A stretch of DNA of 64,000 bases from an uncultured Bacteroidales bacterium. GTDB lineage: Bacteria > Bacteroidota > Bacteroidia > Bacteroidales > JAADJA01. The notes beneath the pieces are model-generated. The model saw only the letters and a list, made by a program, of their open reading frames with translations. It was not told the origin of the DNA and ran no database searches. The stretch spans positions 7,285 to 71,284 of the forward strand of contig CAVXGA010000018.1 of NCBI GenBank assembly GCA_963761195.1. Reading direction: 5' to 3'. Shown one piece after another: positions 1 to 63,707 of the stretch; positions within the stretch are counted from its first letter, which is position 1, and every line of letters starts with the position of its first letter. Both the position numbers and the translations under genes were made by a program.

Positions 1-1444
1 CTCGTGAAAGTGCATTTTCCGTCTGAAATCCGTCATCCGGCCAACCTTTCAAATCTTTTCTTGCTACCGCTGCATAAAAGGTATATAGAGGATTGATGTC
101 TTCGATCGGAAAATCCGTGCCAAGCGGTTCCCACCCGTTTTCATCCAATAGTTCTTTATAAGCATATGCGCCTTTTATCCGTTCCTGCCCTAACCTGTCC
201 TCAGCCCAGTACATATCAGAAGTAGCATGTGTTGGCTGAACCGACGGAATGATGGAATACTCGCCGAATAATTTAAAATCTTCAGGCGCAACTACCTGCG
301 CATGTTCGATGCGCCAACGCAAATCGTTTTTACCTTTTAAAAATTCCGAATACAGCTGAAGAACAAACCGGTTGGCACCGTCCCCAATGGCGTGCGTATT
401 TACCTGGTAATTGTATTGGAGGGCTATTTGGCAATATTTTTTATAAAAATCTTCCTTAAAAAGAAACAGTCCCATATTTCCAGGATCATCGGAATAGGGT
501 TCGATAAGCCTTGCACCTCTGGACCCTAATGCACCATCGGCATAGAGTTTTATAGATCGAACCGTCAATTTATCTGTTTGATAAGGACCTTTTTTTATGT
601 AATATTCAACGTTTTCCGAATTCGGTGTCAGCATCGCATTGATCCGCATTTTCAGGGAACCTTCATGCTGCAGTTCATCGATCAGTTTTACCGTATCCCT
701 ATCAAGTCCGGCATCTGTAACCGAAGTAAGGCCTACAGCAAAACAACTGTCCTGTGCAATCAGCAACGCTTTTTTTATAAATGCTTTATCCGGTTTAGAA
801 ATGATATTGTTGATGAGTTCCATTGCATTATCGAGCAGAAGCCCGGTAGGTTCTCCATTATGAACAAAAATTTCACCTCCATTTATTTTTGTATCTGCTG
901 TTATTCCGGCAATTTTAAGTGCCTTTGAATTGACAACTGCAGCATGTCCGTCAATCCGCACAAGGTATACAGGATTATTGGGAAAGGCTTTATCCAGTAA
1001 TATTTTGGTCGGAAATTCTTTGACCTTCCAGTCATTCTGGTCCCAGCCCCGTCCTTCGATCCATTCCGTCTCATATTTTTTATGATGCTACTGTAATTTT
1101 TCAATAACTTCTTCGAATGATTTTGTTCCAACCAGATTAACCCTTTTTAACAGTCCATAACCGTAACTAAAAAAATGACAATGCGCATCATTGAATCCCG
1201 GATAAACCGGTTTTCCCTGTGCATCGAAAACTTCCGGTGATTGATAATGATTAAGAATATCCTTGTTTGATCCAACTGCTATGAATTTTCCTCCTTTTAC
1301 AGCAAAGGCCTGAACGGTATCGAATTTTTCATTTACCGTGTATACTTTCCCGTTTAAAACAATCAGGTCGGCTTTTTCTTTAATATTGCTGCAAGCGCTC
1401 ATAACAATAAAGGTTATTAAAGCTATTAAAATTCCATTCTTCAT
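1..1444 (-). pseudogene. Amidohydrolase 3 (YtcJ-like) lipoprotein, interrupted by one in-frame TAG at 1088-1090; runs off the left edge
   Basis: Signal peptide MKNG...MSAC and the motif PGFNDAHCH. The same frame continues past the TAG with GRGWDQNDW, RIDGHA, KLYADGALGSRGA, THAIGD, RIEHAQ and GTDFP. Confidence 0.85.
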
Positions 1445-55801: not shown

Positions 55802-55862
55802 TAACATTTTGCTTTAACAATTGAATATAAATAGATTCTCCATCATCTTAATAACTATAATC

Positions 55863-56351
55863 ATGAAAACAATTTTGACATTCTTAGTTCTTTCACTATT
55901 AGTAATCAGTTGCACACAAATTACCAATGATAAGAAAATTGCGTCCACACAACCGGATGAAATAAATGGTTACGATTCGCTGCTTGCCTCTAAATTAGGC
56001 GCCGATGAGTACGGTATGAAGCAATATGTGATGGCATTTTTAAAATCAGGACCGGAACAAAGCCAGGATTCAGCAACCCGAAGGAAAATTCAGCGCGCTC
56101 ACTTGGACAATATTACGCGTTTAGCTGCAGAAGGAAAATTGATTGTTGCAGGTCCTTTTCTTGATGACACGGAAATCAGGGGAATTTTTATTTTCAATGT
56201 CTCCACATTGGAAGAAGCAAGAGAATTAACCAATTCCGACCCTGCAGTACAGTCAGGCCGGCTGGTAATGGAATTACATCCCTGGTATGGATCAGCCGCG
56301 TTAATTCAGGTCAATCAAATTCATAACAAAATTGCAAAAATGAAAATATGA
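55863..56351 (+). CDS. YciI-family lipoprotein
   Basis: ISC lipobox; GADEYGMK.YV.AFLK.GP, AHL, AGPF, DPAV..GRL..E..PW. Confidence 0.85.
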   Translation: MKTILTFLVLSLLVISCTQITNDKKIASTQPDEINGYDSLLASKLGADEYGMKQYVMAFLKSGPEQSQDSATRRKIQRAHLDNITRLAAEGKLIVAGPFLDDTEIRGIFIFNVSTLEEARELTNSDPAVQSGRLVMELHPWYGSAALIQVNQIHNKIAKMKI

Positions 56352-56684: not shown

Positions 56685-57070
56685 ATGAAATATTATCTGA
56701 GCAAACTTGTAAAGGGTGAGTTTATGGATATGATAAGTCAGGTAACATCTCTTCTGAATGAAGAAGGATTTGGGATTTTATCTGAAATCAATGTTCAGGA
56801 TACTCTGAAAAAAAGCTGGATATCGATTATAAGAAATACACAATTCTCGGAACTTGCAACCCACATCTTGCCATCCGGGCTTTTCAGGCTGAAGACAAAA
56901 TCGGAACTTTGTTGCCGTGCAATGTAGTATTGATAGAACAGGAAAATAATATGGTTGAAGTTGCTATTATGAATCCAGTAAAACAGATGGCGCACATTGG
57001 TAATCCTGAACTTGAAGTCCTTGCAATAGAGGTATATGAAATAATGAGCCGAATCCTCGCAAAACTTTAA
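56685..57070 (+). pseudogene. DUF302 family protein, frameshifted in the A-run at 56808-56814
   Basis: GFGILSEINVQ.TLKK; adding one A gives KLDIDY..YTILGTCNP...IGTLLPCNVV...ILAKL*. Confidence 0.85.
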
Positions 57071-57121: not shown

Positions 57122-58657
57122 CTAATCGTTATATTCTTTCTCATTGAAAACGATGGCCTGATAGGTATAAATTTCCGCATCTTTCCATCCATCCCATCCC
57201 AATCCGGCCTTATCACGGGAACAATGACCTAAAAATTCCTCCAATGTCCATCCAGTTTCATTTGCAACTTGTGGTAAAAATGTCCCTGTATTGTTACCTT
57301 TTTTAATATAAATTCCATCTATTCCGAGCTTGATCTGAGCAACTGAATCAATTTTTTGCATGGGAGACAACACGGAGATTTCAATTTCTATATCGCTGAT
57401 TTCATTTTGCTTTACAGGAGTAAAACGCGTATCCTGGGTTGCTGATGCAATGGTCATCTGTTGAACAACTTTATATAACGGATCATTTGCGTCAAACCTT
57501 CCAATGCATCCCCGAAGTTCTTTATTTTTTTTAAGTGTTACAAAGGCCCCACATGGAATTTTTAAGTTTTCGGAAAAGGAATTGATATTCAAAGCCGGAA
57601 CCTGATTATCAGAAATAAATTGGACAAGAGTTGCCCGTGCGACATCAAGTAAATCTTTTTTATCCTTTTCTGTAAGATTAAAATCAGTAGTCATAAGCGA
57701 CAAATTTTTTTTAGTAACCACTATTGCGTTATAACCGACAACTTTCGATTTGTCGCCAGATTCAGAGTCTCCGGAATTTTCATAAGCAACCAAACCATAT
57801 TCAAGATCCGGTTGTCCTTCTGTTAAATCGAGCAACGTCAGAATGGAAGTCCAGCCACAGGCACGAGTCGCGAGGTTCGGAATATTTTTATTTGTGGGAT
57901 CATTAATTGCAGACAAAAATTTTAGAGACGAATTTGAAAGGATTGCATTTGCGGTGTTTTTATCAATTTTTACAGCATCTGCGTAAGAAGGGTAATGTGA
58001 AAAATCGGAACTTATCACGAAAAGGTTATTTCCGTCAAAATAAGGCTTAAGGACTTTGGCAATTTCCTTACAAACTTCAGGCGATTGCGTGCCGAGAATT
58101 ACAGGCACTATTTTTAAATCACTCTGAAGTATGTATTGTAGAAAAGGTACCTGAACTTCTATGGTATGCTCGTTAATTTCAGCTTCCGGAAAGAAGGAGA
58201 AATAATCGCTCTCACCAATTAGTTTTTTTGCAAGTTCAACGTTGACCTTGACTTTGCCCAGGGGCGTGACATAATTCCCTGCTGAATACACAGAAGCTCC
58301 ATCAAAATAAATTCTGTGGCTTGAACCGATAATAAATACATTGTCATATGCTTTTGTTCTGTCAATCTGGTTGTACCCTGACGCTGCAATAATTCCAGAA
58401 AAAACATAACCTGCATGTGGAACAATCACTGCCTTTACATTTTTGTATTCTCGGGGTCTGGCTTTACCAAACAAATCTTTTAGCATGTTCTGCAGGTTCT
58501 CTTTATCCGAAGGATAGAATTGTCCAGCTACAACGGGTTGCCTGTCAACATCTTGATTCTCCTTTTCTGTATTAATTTTTCGGTTTTGCGCAGTGCAATC
58601 CGTAAATAATAAAACAATTAAACTAAGAATCGAAAAAATAAATTTTTCACCTCTCAT
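57122..58657 (-). CDS. AmmeMemoRadiSam protein B (Memo)-protein A (AMMECR1) fusion with N-terminal signal peptide
   Basis: R.P.VAG.FYP, VPHAGYVFSG, GSSH, EH.IEVQ.PFLQ, SSDFSHY, ACG, VVGY; then GAFVTL...LRGCIG, D.RF, EISVLSP, TFLPQVA. Confidence 0.93.
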   Translation of the reverse strand: MRGEKFIFSILSLIVLLFTDCTAQNRKINTEKENQDVDRQPVVAGQFYPSDKENLQNMLKDLFGKARPREYKNVKAVIVPHAGYVFSGIIAASGYNQIDRTKAYDNVFIIGSSHRIYFDGASVYSAGNYVTPLGKVKVNVELAKKLIGESDYFSFFPEAEINEHTIEVQVPFLQYILQSDLKIVPVILGTQSPEVCKEIAKVLKPYFDGNNLFVISSDFSHYPSYADAVKIDKNTANAILSNSSLKFLSAINDPTNKNIPNLATRACGWTSILTLLDLTEGQPDLEYGLVAYENSGDSESGDKSKVVGYNAIVVTKKNLSLMTTDFNLTEKDKKDLLDVARATLVQFISDNQVPALNINSFSENLKIPCGAFVTLKKNKELRGCIGRFDANDPLYKVVQQMTIASATQDTRFTPVKQNEISDIEIEISVLSPMQKIDSVAQIKLGIDGIYIKKGNNTGTFLPQVANETGWTLEEFLGHCSRDKAGLGWDGWKDAEIYTYQAIVFNEKEYND

Positions 58658-58696
58658 TATTTAATTAAATTTGAATTGTTATTACAAAGTTAGAAA

Positions 58697-60844
58697 ATGT
58701 TCAGCAAAACTGAAACAAGCCTGAAATTTTCAATTTTTATTTTAGGATTTACTGCCATTATTACCCAGGTAATTCTGTTGCGTGAATTCCTGTCTGTTTT
58801 CTATGGCAACGAATTAGTTATCGGGATTATTCTTGCAAACTGGATGTTACTGACAAGCCTGGGTGCTTATTTGGGTAAATTTTTTAATAATGTCAAAGAG
58901 AAATTAAACGTCATTGTTCCATCACAATTGCTATTGGGTATCCTTCCACTGCTAATTGTATTTGCCATACATTATTTAAAGAATAGATTATTACCTCCCG
59001 GTAAATTAGTCAGTTTAAATGAAATAGTTATCAGTTCCTTGATTCTTTTATCTCTTTTCTGTATTATTTCTGGAGCCTTATTTACTATTTTCAGTGTCTG
59101 GTTTTCTGGTACTGTTCATTTGAACAGCATCGATAAAGTATATTCATGGGAAGCAGTTGGAGGAATACTTGGCGGACTGCTTGTAAATCTATTGTTATTT
59201 CTTACGATAAGTACGTTTTACTGCCTTACGATCCTTATCATGATCAATTACCTTGCAGCAAGCCATTTACTTTATATTTCCGGAAGAAAAAGTTTGTCAG
59301 TTATATTTTCGGTTCTTGCCGTATTTTTCACAACATTTATACTCATAAGTGATATCAATTCAAGTTCCATACAATTTTTATATCCCGGACAAGAAGTTAT
59401 TTATTCAAAAGACACACCTTACGGGAACTTGGCAGTTACGAAATATGCGAATCAATTTAATTTCTATGAAAATGGGATTCCGCTGTTTTCGTCCGATAAT
59501 ACGATATCAAATGAAGAGAGTGTCCACTATGCAATGGTTCAGCATGCCAATCCGCATTCCATATTATTGATTTCAGGTGGGATATCCGGGACATTAAAGG
59601 AAATTTTAAAATATCCTGTCGAGTCAGTCGATTACTTGGAAATAAATCCGGCACTGATTGAAATTGGGAAAAATTATACAAGTAATATCCTGAATGATAA
59701 CAGGATAAGAATAATAAATGAAGACGCAAGGCTTTATATTAAGAAAACACACAAAAAGTATGACATTGTGTTAATTAACCTTCCTGATCCCAGCAATGCT
59801 GAAATCAACAGGTATTACACATTGGAGTTTTTTGAAGAATTAAAGAAGCATTTAAATAAATTTGCTGTAATCTCAACCAGCCTTATGCCAACCAATAATT
59901 ATGTAAGCGAAGTTGCTGCAGAAATCCATTCTTCTCTTTATTCAACGCTAAAGCTTCTTTTTCAGAATGTAATTATTATTCCGGGTGGAAGAAATTACTT
60001 CTTAGCCTCGGAACGATATCTTTCTTACAACATAACTCAGTTAATAGAATCAAAAGCCATTTCGACGGAATATGTTAATATTTACTATCTCAATGACGAT
60101 AAAATTAAACAAGAGAGTTTGATGATTGAAGATGCAATTTCAAAAAAAATTGAAATAAATTATGATTTAAAACCTACTACATATTTACTTCAGTTAAAAC
60201 TTTGGCTGAATCAATTCACGGAGAGTTACATACCCGTCGGCTTACTATTAATGTTACCATTGATAATTATCTTCCTTAAATTCAATATTTTTAGTACGGG
60301 TCTTTTTGTAACCGGGTTTTCTTCTTTATCCCTCGAAGTCATCATCATAATTGCTTTTCAGGTAATATACGGTTATGTATTTCAAATGCTTGGATTGATC
60401 ATTGCCTTTTTTATGGCGGGTTTGGCAATCGGCTCCTATTACTTTATCAAAAAACTAAATTATAATTTCAGAAGTTTTAGTTTAAATCAATATCTGATTG
60501 GCATTTTTGCGTTATTATTGCCATTGTTTATTGTTGAGCTAAGCCATTTTAGTGAAAATTATCTTTTCATAAACTTTGTTTTCATCGTTCTGATTTTAAT
60601 CATAGGCATTATTACAGGTGTTCAATTCGCACTTACCACAAAAATCAGGAATTCAGATATTTCCACCATTGCATCTGAATCATATAGTTCGGAGTTATTG
60701 GGTTCAGCTTTAGGTGCTTTGGTAGTTACCACATTTCTAATCCCTTATTTCGGAATTATTAAAGTTTCACTTATGATTGGAATTGTAAATATTGTAACGG
60801 GTCTCTTAATATTACTTAGCAAAAAAGATCGTTTATCTATGTAG
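58697..60844 (+). CDS. Fused membrane (MFS-like)/spermidine-synthase-like SAM-dependent transferase
   Basis: About 7 N-terminal TMs; soluble domain with EESVH, ILLISGG, YLEINP, EDAR.YI, NLPDP, RYYT.EFF; about 6 C-terminal TMs. Confidence 0.85.
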   Translation: MFSKTETSLKFSIFILGFTAIITQVILLREFLSVFYGNELVIGIILANWMLLTSLGAYLGKFFNNVKEKLNVIVPSQLLLGILPLLIVFAIHYLKNRLLPPGKLVSLNEIVISSLILLSLFCIISGALFTIFSVWFSGTVHLNSIDKVYSWEAVGGILGGLLVNLLLFLTISTFYCLTILIMINYLAASHLLYISGRKSLSVIFSVLAVFFTTFILISDINSSSIQFLYPGQEVIYSKDTPYGNLAVTKYANQFNFYENGIPLFSSDNTISNEESVHYAMVQHANPHSILLISGGISGTLKEILKYPVESVDYLEINPALIEIGKNYTSNILNDNRIRIINEDARLYIKKTHKKYDIVLINLPDPSNAEINRYYTLEFFEELKKHLNKFAVISTSLMPTNNYVSEVAAEIHSSLYSTLKLLFQNVIIIPGGRNYFLASERYLSYNITQLIESKAISTEYVNIYYLNDDKIKQESLMIEDAISKKIEINYDLKPTTYLLQLKLWLNQFTESYIPVGLLLMLPLIIIFLKFNIFSTGLFVTGFSSLSLEVIIIIAFQVIYGYVFQMLGLIIAFFMAGLAIGSYYFIKKLNYNFRSFSLNQYLIGIFALLLPLFIVELSHFSENYLFINFVFIVLILIIGIITGVQFALTTKIRNSDISTIASESYSSELLGSALGALVVTTFLIPYFGIIKVSLMIGIVNIVTGLLILLSKKDRLSM

Positions 60845-60865
60845 TTATTTTCTACTCATATAAAG

Positions 60866-62038
60866 ATGAAGAATCAGGATTTAACGCTATCCAAAAGGGA
60901 ATTTATAAAAAGGAGTACCTTGGGTCTTGCAGCTTTAGGTTGCGGTTTTTGTAGTTTCAATACGGCATCCGAAGTAATTGGCTCAGATTTTTCGTTTGCA
61001 GATGTCCCTTATTCTGATAAGCTCGATAAATGGACACTTGAAGCAATGTATTATATCGAAACCCCAAAGGGGTTGAAATGTCTGATTTGCCCGAACGAAT
61101 GTAAAATGCTTGAAGGTGAAACAAGCGAATGCAAGACAAAAACAAATATTGATGGCAAACTTTACAGCATTGCTTACGGAAATCCATGTGCAGTGCATAT
61201 CGATCCGATTGAAAAGAAACCACTTTTCCATTTTTTACCTTCAACAAACGCTTATTCAATAGCCACGGCGGGTTGCAACCTGAAATGCTTAAATTGTCAG
61301 AACTGGGAAATATCTCAAACCAGTCCAAAAAAAACGAAGAACTACGACTTGCCTCCAAAATATGTTGTAGAAAAATGTATTGAAAATAAATGTCAATCTA
61401 TTGCATACACGTATTCTGATCCTGTTGCATATTATGAATATTGCCTCGATACAGCTAAACTTGCAAAAGGAAAAGGAATAAAAAATGTACTCGTATCAGC
61501 GGGCTATATCAATGAAAAACCCTTGCGGGAATTATGTAAATATATTGATGCTGCCAATATAGACCTGAAATCATTTTTGCAAGAGGATTATGAAATGCTT
61601 AATGCCGGCAAACTCGAGCCAGTTTTAGAAGCACTCAAAATAATTAAAGAAGAAGGCGTCTGGCTTGAAATAACCAATCTGGTAGTTCCAGGATGGACTG
61701 ATGATTTGGACATGATACGTGAAATGTGCAATTGGCTTGTAAATAATGGATTTCGGGACTATCCGCTTTTTTTTAGCAGATTTTTTCCGAAATACCAATT
61801 GGCTAATTTGGCTCCTACTCCGGTTTCTATTCTTTTGGATGCAAGAGAAATTGCAATGCAAGCCGGATTAAATTATGTATATGTCGGAAATGTTCCTGGT
61901 ACAAATGCCGAAAATACAATTTGTCCAGGTTGCAAAAATATAGTTATTGAAAGGAAGGGCTTCCAGATTATCACTAACAACCTGAACAACGGAATGTGTA
62001 AGTTTTGTGACACTAAAATTAATGGTATTTGGAATTGA
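60866..62038 (+). CDS. amrS: AmmeMemoRadiSam radical SAM enzyme with Tat-like N-terminus
   Basis: C..CP..C, DPIEKKPLFHF, GCNLKCLNCQNW (CxxxCxxC), AYTYSDP, AANIDLK, YVYVGN, C-terminal CPGC/CKFC. Confidence 0.94.
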   Translation: MKNQDLTLSKREFIKRSTLGLAALGCGFCSFNTASEVIGSDFSFADVPYSDKLDKWTLEAMYYIETPKGLKCLICPNECKMLEGETSECKTKTNIDGKLYSIAYGNPCAVHIDPIEKKPLFHFLPSTNAYSIATAGCNLKCLNCQNWEISQTSPKKTKNYDLPPKYVVEKCIENKCQSIAYTYSDPVAYYEYCLDTAKLAKGKGIKNVLVSAGYINEKPLRELCKYIDAANIDLKSFLQEDYEMLNAGKLEPVLEALKIIKEEGVWLEITNLVVPGWTDDLDMIREMCNWLVNNGFRDYPLFFSRFFPKYQLANLAPTPVSILLDAREIAMQAGLNYVYVGNVPGTNAENTICPGCKNIVIERKGFQIITNNLNNGMCKFCDTKINGIWN

Positions 62039-62371: not shown

Positions 62372-62947
62372 GTGCAGGAAAAAAAGGCAGACGAAATAAT
62401 AGACGGGATTTTTAAAAAAGACACTAAAGTTCTTGATTTTGTTTATGAAAACTTTTTTCATCAGATAAAAGCCTTAATAAATCAAAATAGTGGAACTGAT
62501 GAGGATGCAAGTGATATTTATCAGGATGCAATTATGGTAATTTATCAAAAAATTAGAAAAGAGAACCTGTCACTAAATTGTTCTTTTGGTACTTATTTAT
62601 ATTCCGTTTGCAGACTGCTTTGGTTAAAACAACTTGAAAAGAAAAAATTGGACAAAGTATTTGTTGAAGATTCAGTAATGTTTATCGAGCTAGCAGAAAA
62701 TGAAATTTTAACGTTTAATGATCTCAATGAAAGATATTTACTTTATCAGGATCATTTTCAACGATTAAGTTACAACTGCCAGAAAATACTTGAACTTTTT
62801 CTTGCTAAAATTCCTTTAAAAGAAATTGCAAGAATACTGGGATTAAAAAGCGAGTTGTATGTTAAGAAGAGAAAGCACCAATGCAAAGAAAAATTAGTAT
62901 CAAGCATTAAAAGTGATCCAAGATATTTGGAAATTATAAAAAATTAA
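62372..62947 (+). CDS. ECF-type RNA polymerase sigma-70 factor
   Basis: Region 2: DA.DIYQDA...F.TYLYSV..LW; region 4: L...CQ.IL.LF...EIA.ILG. Confidence 0.9.
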   Translation: MQEKKADEIIDGIFKKDTKVLDFVYENFFHQIKALINQNSGTDEDASDIYQDAIMVIYQKIRKENLSLNCSFGTYLYSVCRLLWLKQLEKKKLDKVFVEDSVMFIELAENEILTFNDLNERYLLYQDHFQRLSYNCQKILELFLAKIPLKEIARILGLKSELYVKKRKHQCKEKLVSSIKSDPRYLEIIKN

Positions 62948-62969
62948 TAAAATTCAAATAAACCATAAA

Positions 62970-63707
62970 ATGAATAAATCACAATTATTCGAGGACTTTA
63001 TCGATGGAAATTTATCAGGAGAAGAATTAAATTCATTTCTTGTACAAAAGAGGACAGATCATATGATTTCCTCTGAAATAGACTTTCGTCTTGAAATCAA
63101 TGAAGCTATTCAGGATAAGGGGCTCATGGAAATAAGAGAGCATTTAAGAGTTCAAATGAACAATTATTCCAATAATTTCCCTTTCTTTAATTTTCGAAAA
63201 GAAACATTGAAAACCTGGCAGTTAGCTGCAGCATCCTTTGCGCTTATTCTGGTAGCTGGAGGATTATGGTTTATTTTATCAAACAAACCTTATTCAACTG
63301 AAAAATTAGTCAGTAAATATTATAAACCAGCAAATCCTATTGGTCAACACAGGTCCGTTGATCTGAATGCTGATGATGCAATAAATGAGGCCTTCGCATT
63401 TTATGGAAAATCTGACTATACCAATGCACTAAAATATTTTAATGCATTGGAAAATCAGGTTACTGCCAGATTTTATACTGGTATTTGTTACATCGAACTT
63501 GAGAAATATAACCAGGCAATTGAATCATTTGATTTTGTAATTAAGGATGATGATAATCTGTTGGTTGAACATGCAAATTGGTATTTAGGCTTGATTTACC
63601 TTATGAATAATCAAAAGAAAAATGCAATTGATCAGTTTGAAAAAATAGCTAAAAGTGATAGTTATTATGCAAATCAAGCTACAGACATTTTGAAATATTT
63701 AAATTAA
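62970..63707 (+). CDS. Putative anti-sigma factor: N-terminal helical domain, one TM, periplasmic TPR domain
   Basis: F.DG.LS.EE..F N-terminus; TM WQLAAASFALILVAGGLWFIL; TPR-like FYTGICYIE and WYLGLIYL. Confidence 0.8.
   Translation: MNKSQLFEDFIDGNLSGEELNSFLVQKRTDHMISSEIDFRLEINEAIQDKGLMEIREHLRVQMNNYSNNFPFFNFRKETLKTWQLAAASFALILVAGGLWFILSNKPYSTEKLVSKYYKPANPIGQHRSVDLNADDAINEAFAFYGKSDYTNALKYFNALENQVTARFYTGICYIELEKYNQAIESFDFVIKDDDNLLVEHANWYLGLIYLMNNQKKNAIDQFEKIAKSDSYYANQATDILKYLN

Follow-up and report, generated by a model that had tools for sequence, protein, structure and literature searches.

A candidate envelope-located AmmeMemoRadiSam system assembled on a membrane protein with a predicted MFS fold and a SpeE-like domain

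Introduction

Memo and AMMECR1 are conserved from archaea to humans, and together with the radical SAM enzyme AmrS they make up the AmmeMemoRadiSam trio, whose function is, to our knowledge, still unexplained. Radical SAM enzymes are regarded as strictly cytoplasmic because they have oxygen-sensitive clusters and need both S-adenosylmethionine (SAM) and a strong reductant. The anaerobic sulfatase-maturating enzymes, for example, have no signal peptide and act on their clients before export. We know of no periplasmic pool of SAM or of a low-potential reductant, and of no description of SAM export to the periplasm. In work that appeared in the Journal of Biological Chemistry in 2019, Burroughs et al. 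reportedly linked Memo contexts to the modification of nucleotide bases and isoprenoids.

Extracytoplasmic Fe-S proteins are described as obtaining their cofactor in the cytoplasm and Rieske proteins as retaining an uncleaved Tat signal, and E. coli is described as tolerating poorly even the conservative replacement of Arg by Lys in the Tat motif (PMC7317946). TtrB provides a natural example of a Tat signal with KR (PMC1182353). FMN_bind, NapH-like and DsbD-like modules have been assigned to flavinylated extracytosolic electron-transfer systems (PMC8238504, Meheust et al. 2021); the main text of that paper makes no mention of radical SAM, Memo or AMMECR1.

Here we describe a three-gene AmmeMemoRadiSam set from an uncultured Bacteroidales bacterium, encoded in a 64,000-nucleotide stretch of DNA that we refer to throughout as the window. 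A preliminary description had proposed that this set is targeted to the envelope and coupled to a membrane SAM-dependent transferase.

Results

The window encodes a Memo-AMMECR1 fusion, a membrane protein and AmrS

The open reading frames of the preliminary description correspond to a Memo-AMMECR1 fusion, a SpeE-like membrane protein and AmrS (Table 1), and their coordinates, the gaps between them and the two quoted peptides, LSKREFIK in AmrS and MRGEKFIFSILSLIVLLFTDC at the N-terminus of the fusion, were all recovered in the translated frames. The fusion and the membrane gene are divergent, with 39 bp between their starts (58657 and 58697), and the end of the membrane gene (60844) is separated by 21 bp from the start of amrS (60866).

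The Memo and AMMECR1 partners form one protein encoded 2.2 kb from amrS, which matches TIGR04336 (239.6 bits, cut-off 26, residues 39-314) and TIGR04335 (161.3 bits, cut-off 99, residues 336-504), and for which the closest solved structures are AMMECR1 1zq7 and MEMO1 7kq8. AmrS matches TIGR04337 at 343.2 bits (curated cut-off 220), and since this match begins only at residue 69, about 68 N-terminal residues are additional; its closest solved structure is PFL activase (3c8f, E 3.5e-8). The membrane protein matches PF01564 over residues 272-396 and falls marginally under the cut-off of NF037959, "fused MFS/spermidine synthase" (39.4 bits against 40), a name that several of its homologs (42-57% identity) carry at NCBI.

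Table 1. Features of the three-gene set, in window positions, with the basis for each assignment.
Feature	Position	Strand	Basis
Memo-AMMECR1 fusion protein, 511 aa (AmrB-AmrA part)	57122..58657	-	TIGR04336, TIGR04335; Pfam Memo and AMMECR1
Sec-type signal peptide of the fusion, residues 1-23	58589..58657	-	Sequence and homolog recurrence
Membrane protein, 715 aa: MFS fold broken by a helical hairpin with a SpeE-like domain	58697..60844	+	AF2 model, VIA-align
First MFS half, TM1-6, residues 5-194	58709..59278	+	AF2 helices; hhalign
TM7, residues 198-217, outgoing hairpin arm	59288..59347	+	AF2 helix; outside the internal repeat
SpeE-like (class I Rossmann) domain, residues 226-490, predicted periplasmic	59372..60166	+	phmmer against PDB, Foldseek
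TM8, residues 511-527, returning hairpin arm	60227..60277	+	AF2 helix
Second MFS half, TM9-14, residues 531-714	60287..60838	+	AF2 model, internal repeat, VIA-align
AmrS, AmmeMemoRadiSam radical SAM enzyme, 390 aa, with N-terminal extension	60866..62038	+	TIGR04337
Candidate Tat-type signal peptide or signal anchor of AmrS, residues 1-34	60866..60967	+	Motif S-K-R-E-F-I-K, hydrophobic stretch
AmrS motif S-K-R-E-F-I-K, residues 9-15	60890-60910	+	Sequence
Radical SAM cluster motif C137-x3-C141-x2-C144 of AmrS	61274..61297	+	Invariant Cys columns; PF04055 over residues 133-281

AmrS and the fusion carry conserved N-terminal signals

All signal assignments were made with our own motif, charge and hydropathy rules rather than with a trained predictor. 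The S-K-R-E-F-I-K sequence of the window AmrS departs from the strict RR consensus, S/T-R-R-x-F-L-K, in having Lys for the first Arg. C-terminal of it lies a Gly/Ala-rich hydrophobic stretch, which is flanked by positive charges on the N-terminal side and acidic residues on the C-terminal side. This h-region is weakly hydrophobic, its best 12-residue Kyte-Doolittle mean being 1.74 (homolog median, 1.73).

Comparison with homologs agrees with the earlier proposal of a KR-variant Tat signal. The motif x-[KR][KR]-x-F-[LIVMA], together with a hydrophobic stretch, is kept in 112 of the 120 closest AmrS homologs, and despite the intolerance seen in E. coli the KR form is near-universal among these motif-bearing Bacteroidota proteins (111 KR, 1 RR); an alignment of 46 sequences shows no variation at K10, R11 or F13. 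The canonical RR occurs in the AmrS of loci L124 and L010 and, at the same place, in 8 of 12 AmrS-linked Thermodesulfobacteriota loci, with RK in the remaining 4. A twin-basic, Tat-like N-terminus was also found in 35 of the best 150 50%-cluster representatives (RR 32, RK 2, KR 1). When the 2961 frames of at least 150 aa in the window genome were scanned with the strict pattern [ST][RK][RK]xF[LIVM][KRQ] plus a hydrophobic stretch, three N-termini were returned, namely those of two RR proteins and the window AmrS. This genome encodes TatC (226 bits) and TatA (53 bits); since 399 of the phylum's 401 genomes have TatC, the presence of the Tat machinery does not discriminate between readings.

The N-terminus of the fusion consists of the n-region MRGEK, a 13-residue hydrophobic core and then C-T-A followed by Gln24, before which signal peptidase I probably cuts. 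This would be a cleavage of the Bacteroidetes Q-rule type, in which signal peptidase I substrates have Gln at +1 (PMC5837995). A Sec-type signal is present in 16 of 16 fusion proteins with a readable N-terminus from the linked Bacteroidota loci, and the hydrophobic core gives way to C-x-[AS]-Q (Cys, with Gln three residues on) in the window as in most Bacteroidota loci, while the L117 and L124 fusions have classic lipoboxes. The peptide had been described as Sec- or lipoprotein-like. Its Sec character holds across these loci, whereas the window sequence looks like a Q-rule substrate rather than a classic lipobox, and lipidation at Cys residue 21 is possible though atypical, because Asp sits at -1. 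Judged from these alignments, the conserved signals of AmrS and the fusion are not a matter of chance, and KR is the Bacteroidota form of the RR signal found in other phyla.

The three genes form a conserved module beside a second, signal-less set

The full-length membrane protein occurs in 12 of the 401 genomes of the phylum. In all 12, an AmrS gene lies within 2 kb of it or at a contig break that matches, and the fusion gene is its neighbour in 10 of the 11 genomes other than that of the window, so the proposed linkage to the membrane gene is conserved. Three gene orders are seen across the linked Bacteroidota loci, no fourth conserved gene was found among them, and the trio is kept together in two phyla. 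The three genes are a conserved module.

Persistence of the trio through these gene orders and phyla bears on the reading that the extensions are gene-calling artefacts, arising from wrong start codons, and the neighbourhood a coincidence. The data are mostly metagenome-assembled genomes, and in 8 of the 120 homologs the called gene lacks the extension. Four of these eight begin within the hydrophobic stretch and so look like miscalled starts, and where the extension is present it is conserved between proteins of 40-80% identity, with invariant K, R and F. We consider an artefact scarcely credible.

Export signals co-occur with the membrane gene. AmrS has its signal in 6 of 6 and 10 of 10 readable N-termini in two Bacteroidota sets of loci with the gene; a sister clade, in trees of modest backbone support (SH-aLRT 85-94, quick search), has a signal-less AmrS with a signal-less fusion, and its four genomes gave no real match (0/4) to the membrane gene. 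All 12 membrane-gene genomes encode a second AmrS elsewhere, which is without a signal in 7 of 7 readable N-termini and in the window genome's own copy (the L127 frame is unreadable). Separate, signal-less Memo and AMMECR1 genes are also found in the window genome.

The membrane protein combines an MFS fold with an inserted SpeE-like domain

The AF2 model of the membrane protein (pLDDT 85.5, pTM 0.83) has 14 predicted membrane-crossing helices, correcting an earlier count of about 13. Twelve of them make up two homologous 6-TM halves that share one orientation and are separated by the two additional helices, and the halves are detectable as an internal repeat (hhalign of residues 5-199 against 528-713, probability 95.8%, E 7.8e-9). 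VIA-align matches the model to VMAT2 (9kqa_A, Z 29.4, rmsd 3.8, 343 aligned, model range 3..714), with further MFS matches over model residues 1-715 to VAChT (Z 27.8), NorA (26.2) and SotB (25.7). Pfam MFS_1 gave no match in the window protein and a weak one, below cut-off, in a fused relative (25.3 bits). The domain between the halves resembles SpeE both in structure (1uir_A, Z 29.1, rmsd 2.5, 262 aligned, residues 231..504) and in sequence (phmmer against PDB, 1uir_A, 7e-21; Foldseek, 1uir_B, 1.1e-12). In the model, a two-helix hairpin carries the SpeE-like domain as an insertion in the MFS fold. The MFS fold, the internal repeat and the charge counts together predict that this transferase-like domain faces the periplasm: the SpeE side has a K+R count of 5.2, compared with 17.3 for the N-terminal side, which has the higher count in 45 of 45 sequences.

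A transferase role, as first proposed for this protein, is unlikely, because neither the catalytic Asp nor the acidic residue that reads decarboxylated SAM (dcSAM) is conserved. GGGEG of 1uir aligns to SGGISG, and position 296, where we take the acidic residue of the GGG(D/E)G loop to pair with the aminopropyl amine of dcSAM, is Ile in the window; among 47 loci it is hydrophobic in 46 and Pro in one, and never acidic. Similarly, the Asp of IIDLTDP in 1uir, presumably the catalytic Asp of the aminopropyltransferase D-x-x-D-P motif, aligns to Asn361; 36 of 45 sequences have N there, and across the 47 loci the position varies among N, D, H, G, C, S, Q, A and V. The adenosyl contacts E315 and D343, on the other hand, are retained in all 47 loci.

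The SpeE-like domain is predicted to dock AmrS

Complex prediction for AmrS residues 45-390 with the SpeE-like domain (residues 218-510) gave an ipSAE of 0.83 (runs 0.83, 0.81 and 0.84); the runs share at least 90% of contacts, partner pLDDT is at least 87, and the best ipSAE of three controls was 0.00. Of 157 solved complexes, 116 attain this ipSAE mark, as do 2 of 215 mismatched pairs, counts that hold only roughly here because our own alignments were used. No AmrS structure has been solved, the nearest being PFL activase, so the predictor is unlikely to have succeeded by having memorised a similar complex. The predicted interface includes AmrS residues 133 and 145-149, beside the radical SAM cluster loop. 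The SpeE-like domain is thus predicted, from these models, to bind the AmrS catalytic domain.

We infer that the MFS part, whose fold is nearest to cationic-amine antiporters, could carry a cationic adenosyl compound across the membrane, SAM being the likeliest, and that the SpeE-like domain would hold this compound or hand it over, since its adenosyl-binding residues are kept and its aminopropyltransferase residues are not. The membrane protein family is wider than the AmmeMemoRadiSam system, however: 16 of the best 30 Thermodesulfobacteriota membrane-protein loci have no AmrS or AMMECR1 within 1.5 kb, so its basic job cannot be specific to AmrS. This leaves room for a system that works outside the cell but is not supplied with SAM by its membrane protein. 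The MFS part would then move the substrate or a polyamine-like cation, the SpeE-like domain would be a substrate-binding or scaffolding element, and AmrS would arrive pre-loaded with SAM or obtain it from another source. The nearest amine and drug antiporters handle many different cations, and polyamine binding characterises the family from which the inserted domain comes, both of which fit such a division of labour. It accounts less well for the invariance of E315 and D343 next to variable polyamine-binding and deprotonating Asp positions and for an interface adjoining the cluster loop, and a radical SAM enzyme outside the cell needs some source of SAM. We find this alternative somewhat unlikely.

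Relatives carry electron conduits, and some lack the AmrS signal

The window module itself has no electron-conduit gene, the FMN_bind and Fer4_5 genes of its genome lying on other contigs. In relatives, AmrS is fused to FMN_bind (P0252, P0257), to FMN_bind and Fer4_5 (P0247, P0256), to DsbD_2 (P0245, P0251) or to all three (P0264), and in three genomes it is the membrane protein that is fused to FMN_bind and Fer4_5. The NapH-fused AmrS proteins have 6 or 7 helices by crude counts, which fits either side of the membrane for the enzyme. Two relatives are Memo-AMMECR1-AmrS triple fusions, one (P0249) with a signal that is Sec-like and not Tat-like, and the other (P0253) with charges arranged so that the enzyme would stay on the inner side.

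Three Thermodesulfobacteriota genomes count against a uniform model. Their AmrS belongs to the same clade (51-53% identical core) and is signal-less, and the neighbouring Memo-AMMECR1 is signal-bearing; in two of them (G549 and G668) a membrane protein fused to FMN_bind and NapH-like modules lies on the shared contig within about 2 kb. Such loci are what would be expected if AmrS were a cytoplasmic maturase or precursor-maker on the model of the anaerobic sulfatase-maturating enzymes. What works outside would then be no more than its client or product (Memo-AMMECR1, or a small molecule exported by the MFS part), and the KR peptide would serve as a weak or non-exporting tether holding AmrS close to the membrane protein on the inner face. 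The triple fusion P0253, whose charges suggest that it is membrane-anchored and faces inward, would fit as well, as would the similarity of AmrS to the protein-activating PFL activase and the general understanding that SAM and reductant are found only inside the cell. KR and RK are, moreover, poor Tat motifs in E. coli (PMC7317946). Set against this, many lineages have at the same position a canonical RR, and RR signals direct export; the flanking charges of the window signal, positive before and acidic after, would put the catalytic domain outside; the SpeE-like domain predicted to bind AmrS is itself predicted to be periplasmic; and the AmrS signal, the fusion signal and the membrane gene are present or absent together. 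On balance we judge a cytoplasmic AmrS unlikely.

Discussion

The conserved signals, their co-occurrence with the membrane gene and the predicted periplasmic position of the SpeE-like domain support the envelope targeting and membrane coupling put forward in the preliminary description, and the set is probably a second, envelope-located AmmeMemoRadiSam copy assembled on a dedicated membrane protein. In the scheme that we consider, AmrS would obtain its iron-sulfur clusters in the cytoplasm and be moved, folded, by Tat to the periplasmic face, there to be released or to stay tethered by an uncleaved signal as Rieske proteins are, and the fusion would cross by Sec with cleavage before Gln24. On the periplasmic side, the SpeE-like domain would dock the AmrS catalytic domain next to the loop of the radical SAM cluster. 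A membrane crossing is needed for electrons too, for which the FMN_bind, NapH-like or DsbD-like conduits fused to AmrS or to the membrane protein in relatives might serve, and the substrate may be an envelope lipid or another membrane-bound molecule. Taken as a whole, the proposal that the module and its relatives are radical SAM enzymes working outside the cytoplasm on an envelope or membrane-bound substrate, supplied with Fe-S clusters through Tat, with SAM through the MFS/SpeE-derived dock and, in relatives, with electrons through flavinylated conduits, is a tentative one, to which we give rather less than even odds.

These observations suggest oxygen-sensitive radical chemistry at the outer face of the cell membrane. 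The literature searched contained no account of a radical SAM enzyme located outside the cytoplasm, and the papers found to name AmmeMemoRadiSam do so incidentally. If export is real, the strictly cytoplasmic picture of these enzymes would change, given a conserved clade that spans several phyla and combines Tat signals with exported partners, a dock predicted to be periplasmic and electron-conduit fusions, and SAM export to the periplasm would be implied. A very widespread trio would also gain a place to look for its substrate: a membrane-tied version beside a separate cytoplasmic copy narrows the search to envelope or membrane molecules, and provides a genetic handle in that deletion of the exported set should leave the cytoplasmic set untouched.

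Compared with the canonical cytoplasmic AmmeMemoRadiSam system, the window set has all three families above their curated cut-offs and keeps the AmrS Cys motifs, but it differs in having an export signal on every part, in the fusion of Memo to AMMECR1 and in a linked fourth, membrane component; the same genome also keeps a dispersed, unfused and signal-less set. With Tat-exported Fe-S proteins such as Rieske proteins and TtrB of the Salmonella tetrathionate reductase, the latter with a natural KR, AmrS shares a twin-basic motif, a weakly hydrophobic stretch and presumptive Fe-S loading in the cytoplasm (PMC7317946, PMC1182353). As a radical SAM enzyme, however, this passenger has further needs, since every turnover takes SAM and a low-potential electron. 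The modules of flavinylated electron-transfer systems (FMN_bind with its SGAT site, the Fer4_5 membrane Fe-S protein and the DsbD-type membrane domain; PMC8238504) are the same as those fused to relatives of AmrS and of the membrane protein, whereas the window module has none of them.

The inserted domain shares its fold and its adenosyl-binding acidic residues with SpeE, for which the nearest solved structures are those of Thermus thermophilus (1uir/3anx), but it lacks the acidic residue of GGG(D/E)G and the catalytic Asp, and it is inserted between the MFS halves on a hairpin rather than appended. Finally, like the anaerobic sulfatase-maturating enzymes, AmrS is a radical SAM enzyme genetically tied to exported partners; unlike them, the window AmrS itself bears a signal.

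Three linked genes form a paralog of the AmmeMemoRadiSam system

The genes for the Memo-AMMECR1 fusion, the membrane protein and the radical SAM enzyme AmrS lie exactly where the preliminary description had placed them, with the same 39-bp and 21-bp gaps, in a genome assembly of 26 contigs that is 76% complete. Among 401 genomes of the phylum, the AmrS profile TIGR04337 scored above its cut-off in 100, and a full-length membrane protein was found in 12. An AmrS match lies within 2 kb of the membrane gene and on the same strand in 10 of these 12 genomes, and in the remaining 2 the genes are at contig ends, which is consistent with adjacency. With the window's genome set aside, the fusion adjoins in 10 of 11 genomes and was not found near the genes of the remaining one (G085). 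The gene orders are fusion-membrane-AmrS, fusion-AmrS-membrane and AmrS-fusion-membrane, in addition to the divergent layout of the window's clade. A search of 19 linked loci for further conserved genes, for instance an electron donor, found none beyond the three; the other gene clusters in these loci are antisense shadows or lineage-specific neighbours.

All 12 genomes with the membrane protein carry a second AmrS elsewhere. The second copies start directly at the core in the seven with a readable N-terminus (the frame in locus L127 was not readable and was left out) and in the window's own genome, and no Memo, AMMECR1 or membrane gene was found within 5 kb of the second AmrS in 8 second-copy loci. 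The second set of the window's genome is complete, dispersed and unfused, and none of its members bears a signal. The three genes in the window are one module, a paralog of the ordinary AmmeMemoRadiSam system.

The sister group of the signal-bearing clade of Bacteroidota consists of four Paludibacteraceae/Porphyromonadaceae genomes, which act as a natural control and in which both AmrS and the fusion lack signals and the membrane gene was found in none of the four, the sole match being one 27-bit partial. Hence the three envelope features occur as a set or not at all, and the co-occurrence of export signals with the membrane gene that the preliminary description had put forward as a check is borne out in homologous Bacteroidota loci by their joint loss in these four genomes.

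Features of the module, its surroundings and related genes (C7, C10 and C21 are contigs of the window's genome; L003 and L171 to L173 are homologous loci)
Feature	Location	Strand	Length	Remarks
YCII-domain protein (PF03795)	window 55821-56351	+		upstream of module; hydrophobic lipoprotein-like N-terminal start
Apparently frameshifted gene	window 56685-57000	+
Memo-AMMECR1 fusion	window 57122-58657	-	511 aa	TIGR04336 239.6 bits; TIGR04335 161.3 bits
Gap between divergent starts	window 58658-58696		39 bp
Membrane protein	window 58697-60844	+	715 aa	spermidine-synthase domain PF01564 at residues 272-396
AmrS	window 60866-62038	+	390 aa	TIGR04337 343.2 bits vs cut-off 220
ECF-type sigma factor (Sigma70_r2) and TPR protein	window 62372-63707	+		directly downstream of amrS
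Second AmrS	C21:70027-70995			signal-less
Second Memo	C7:343742-344554		278 aa	open frame, signal-less
Second AMMECR1	C10:107325-107831		178 aa	open frame, signal-less
Fusion in L003	L003:3254-4791	-	256 + 257 aa	two ORFs
Extended MFS-SpeE proteins	L171:2038-5931; L172:2291-5905; L173:2140-5709		~1200-1300 aa

The fusion and membrane genes, which diverge, start so close to each other that any promoters must overlap neighbouring coding sequence, and the window's clade (L003-L005, L007 and L013) shares this compact arrangement. In the closest relative, L003, whose AmrS is 80% identical, the break in the fusion ORF reflects either a frameshift or faulty assembly. The YCII-domain gene recurs beside the module in only 3 of the 19 linked loci (the window, L003 and L007) and is thus a lineage-specific neighbour outside the system. 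Downstream, the TPR protein has a central hydrophobic segment and is anti-sigma-like; the adjacency of the sigma factor and TPR pair to the module is not conserved in other loci. The gene at 56685-57000, which we would liken to DUF302, appears to be frameshifted, as a pseudogene or through an assembly error in an A-run: its frame starts MKYYLSKLV and shifts after DTLKK, and the other frame runs KLDIDYKKYTILGTCNPH to a stop.

AmrS carries a conserved Tat-type signal

In a profile search the match of TIGR04337 to AmrS begins only at residue 69. Among the 120 best AmrS homologs (59-80% identity, mostly from Bacteroidales metagenome genomes), 112 have, within 40 residues of the start, the motif x-[KR][KR]-x-F-[LIVMA] and after it a hydrophobic stretch; the other 8 are shorter gene calls, 4 of which start inside that stretch. 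The basic pair is KR in 111 motif-bearing homologs and RR in one, and K10, R11 and F13 are invariant in an alignment of 46 sequences. A strict motif scan of the window's genome returned only two further candidates, both RR. More distant AmrS proteins have RR at the same position, as in loci L124 and L010; where AmrS adjoins the membrane gene in Thermodesulfobacteriota (n=12) the pair is RR in 8 and RK in 4, and among the best 150 representatives of 50%-identity clusters it is RR in 32, RK in 2 and KR in 1. Judged from these sequences, one part of the AmrS family commonly bears a twin-arginine signal, of which KR is a lineage-specific form. The extension of the window's AmrS is, on the same grounds, a conserved Tat-type signal, and export itself is predicted. 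A natural KR Tat signal, that of TtrB, is on record (PMC1182353); the poor tolerance of E. coli for lysine substitutions in the Tat motif (PMC7317946) is a real caveat. The genome encodes TatC and TatA, which the preliminary description had singled out for a check; the presence of TatC was dropped as a test because it is found in 399 of the 401 genomes and has no discriminating power.

We abandoned the assumption that the whole AmrS clade bears the signal, as it is absent in the four sister-group genomes and in three genomes with a NapH-fused membrane protein (G549, G640 and G668). In some lineages at least, AmrS may act at the inner face of the membrane or before export, an explanation that we keep alive. 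In these three genomes the clade AmrS beside Memo-AMMECR1 is signal-less and that Memo-AMMECR1 is signal-bearing, and in two of them, G549 and G668, the signal-less AmrS lies about 2 kb or less from the extended membrane protein.

The fusion has a Sec-type signal

The preliminary description had assigned the fusion a Sec/lipoprotein-like peptide. A Sec-type start, in which positive charge precedes a hydrophobic core, is present in all 16 linked Bacteroidota loci whose N-terminus was read, and in most of these the core is followed by Cys-x-[Ala/Ser]-Gln. The Sec part of the assignment stands, and the classic lipoprotein reading was set aside as first choice owing to Asp at -1 and the Gln conserved three residues past the Cys. 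Because Asp is often at -1, these N-termini appear to fit the Bacteroidetes Q-rule for signal-peptidase-I substrates (PMC5837995, PMC10653852) better than a classic lipobox, and the cleavage site is a putative one. Two loci, L117 and L124, have classic lipoboxes on the fusion.

The membrane protein combines an MFS fold with a SpeE-like domain

An AF2 model of the membrane protein (pLDDT 85.5, pTM 0.83) has seven helices, a globular domain (approximately residues 226-490) and seven further helices. Homology between residues 5-199 and 528-713 (hhalign probability 95.8%, E 7.8e-9) reveals two identically oriented halves of six helices each, to which TM7 and TM8 are additions. Foldseek against the PDB with the whole model returned SpeE matches only, none of them informative on the membrane part. 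An independent fold search (VIA wide search, 48,161 PDB representatives) gave a match to VMAT2 that spans the whole model (Z 29.4, rmsd 3.8 A, 343 aligned), with further whole-model matches to VAChT (Z 27.8), NorA (Z 26.2) and SotB (Z 25.7), and matched the inserted domain to a Thermus aminopropyltransferase (Z 29.1). As modelled, then, the protein is an MFS fold that carries a SpeE-like domain on a two-helix hairpin. MFS proteins have both termini and the central loop in the cytoplasm, so that a two-helix hairpin inserted there would carry its tip, and with it the domain, across to the other side. Positive-inside counts are in accord with this placement: K+R averages 17.3 on the N-terminal side vs 5.2 on the domain side, with the N-terminal side higher in 45 of 45 sequences (we used AF2 helices and this 45-sequence count, as the helix count from single-sequence hydropathy was ambiguous).

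The preliminary description saw in this protein a possible transferase, a role that its residues argue against. In the GGG(D/E)G loop the acidic position is Ile in the window protein and non-acidic in all 47 loci, and the position of the catalytic Asp holds Asn in the window protein and in 36 of 45 sequences and is variable elsewhere; E315 and D343, at adenosyl-group positions, are kept in all 47 loci. The positions come from the alignment, and the roles are those that we take these residues to have from the SpeE literature. On sequence grounds, an aminopropyltransferase function is improbable for the inserted domain.

In Thermodesulfobacteriota the membrane protein family (matches at E <=1e-30 in 127 of 301 genomes) is far wider than the AmrS system, with AmrS or AMMECR1 within 1.5 kb at only 14 of the best 30 loci, a breadth that counts against a uniform picture and helps to keep action of AmrS at the inner face under consideration. 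Exclusivity of the membrane protein to the AmrS system was given up, the other 16 loci having a housekeeping-like context between putative mazG- and rsmI-like genes and a lipoprotein gene. One MFS-SpeE sub-family there (L142, L143, L146 and L152; frames of 760-800 aa, AmrS absent within 1.5 kb) has a conserved setting, with what we take from N-terminal sequences to be mazG- and rsmI-like genes on one side and a 258-aa protein and a presumably Slp-like lipoprotein on the other.

AmrS is predicted to dock on the SpeE-like domain

A complex of AmrS residues 45-390 (signal removed) with residues 218-510 of the membrane protein, each with its alignment, was predicted with ipSAE 0.83 (runs 0.83, 0.81 and 0.84), vs 0.00 for the best of three controls. 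Of 157 solved complexes, 116 attain this ipSAE mark, as do 2 of 215 mismatched pairs; both figures are only rough here because our own alignments were used. At least 90% of contacts agree between runs, and partner pLDDT is at least 87. On the AmrS side the interface takes in residues 133 and 145-149, to either side of the cluster motif C137-x3-C141-x2-C144; the predicted contacts include AmrS 145-149 and 316-321 and, in the domain, residues 250-255 and 400-404. The nearest solved relative of AmrS is PFL activase (E 3.5e-8), which makes it unlikely that the predictor had learned a similar complex. The prediction supports binding of AmrS to the SpeE-like domain; such a contact, if real, would require the two domains to share one side of the membrane.

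Relatives of AmrS are fused to electron-transfer modules

Among the best cluster representatives of AmrS relatives, 45-52% identical to the core, several have domains ahead of AmrS. An N-terminal helix and FMN_bind with an SGAT flavinylation site precede AmrS in P0252 and P0257, with no helix between; P0247 and P0256 have FMN_bind and a NapH-like Fer4_5 membrane domain, P0245 and P0251 a DsbD_2 membrane domain, and P0264 all three. A signal precedes a CBM_11-like domain in P0243 and a beta-propeller domain in P0244. The extended membrane proteins of the three Thermodesulfobacteriota genomes (Table) are themselves extended by FMN_bind and Fer4_5. FMN_bind, NapH-like and DsbD-like modules belong to flavinylated extracytosolic electron-transfer systems (Meheust et al., PMC8238504), in the main text of which radical SAM, Memo and AMMECR1 go unmentioned. 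These fusions suggest that electrons are delivered across the membrane. A quick tree gathers the signal-bearing and fused AmrS, without exception, in one 68-row group with modest support (SH-aLRT 85), and the ordinary copies lie outside it.

Crude helix counts leave either side of the membrane possible for AmrS in the NapH-like and DsbD-like fusions. Some other relatives suit action at the inner face or before export. AmrS, Memo and AMMECR1 occur as single polypeptides, in both orders, in P0249, P0253, P0258, P0303, P0309 and P0319; in P0249 a Sec-like signal precedes all three, and the N-terminal helix of P0253 is followed by Lys-rich sequence whose charges would hold the enzyme on the inner side. 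An electron-conduit gene is lacking from the window's module, and the FMN_bind and Fer4_5 genes of its genome sit on other contigs.

Proposed function and relation to known systems

We favour, with moderate confidence, an envelope-located paralog of the AmmeMemoRadiSam system. AmrS would leave by Tat with its clusters already in place and Memo-AMMECR1 by Sec, and both would act where the SpeE-like domain of the MFS protein offers a periplasmic dock. The MFS part could deliver SAM, a tentative proposal that we consider somewhat doubtful; it draws on the dependence of every radical SAM enzyme on SAM, the resemblance of the fold to cation antiporters, the adenosyl pocket that has been kept and the contact predicted next to the cluster loop. 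To our knowledge there is no known periplasmic source of SAM, a further point for action at the inner face or before export. Memo contexts were reportedly linked to isoprenoid modification by Burroughs and colleagues in 2019, and since the setting is a membrane one, a lipid-like envelope molecule is a reasonable first guess for the substrate of the envelope-located paralog.

The literature found on AmmeMemoRadiSam, and on AMMECR1 with Memo and radical SAM, contained only incidental or off-topic mentions; for radical SAM with twin-arginine nothing relevant was among the matches listed, and the phrase 'periplasmic radical SAM' was not found. Database annotations may already flag the Tat signals. 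None of the component families is new, and each of the three genes already has a name at NCBI; their apparent combination, in which a Tat-signalled AmrS clade goes with an exported Memo-AMMECR1, a linked MFS-SpeE protein and electron-conduit fusions, is one that we could not find in print. The module opens to testing both whether radical SAM chemistry takes place outside the cytoplasm and where to seek the substrate of this old trio.
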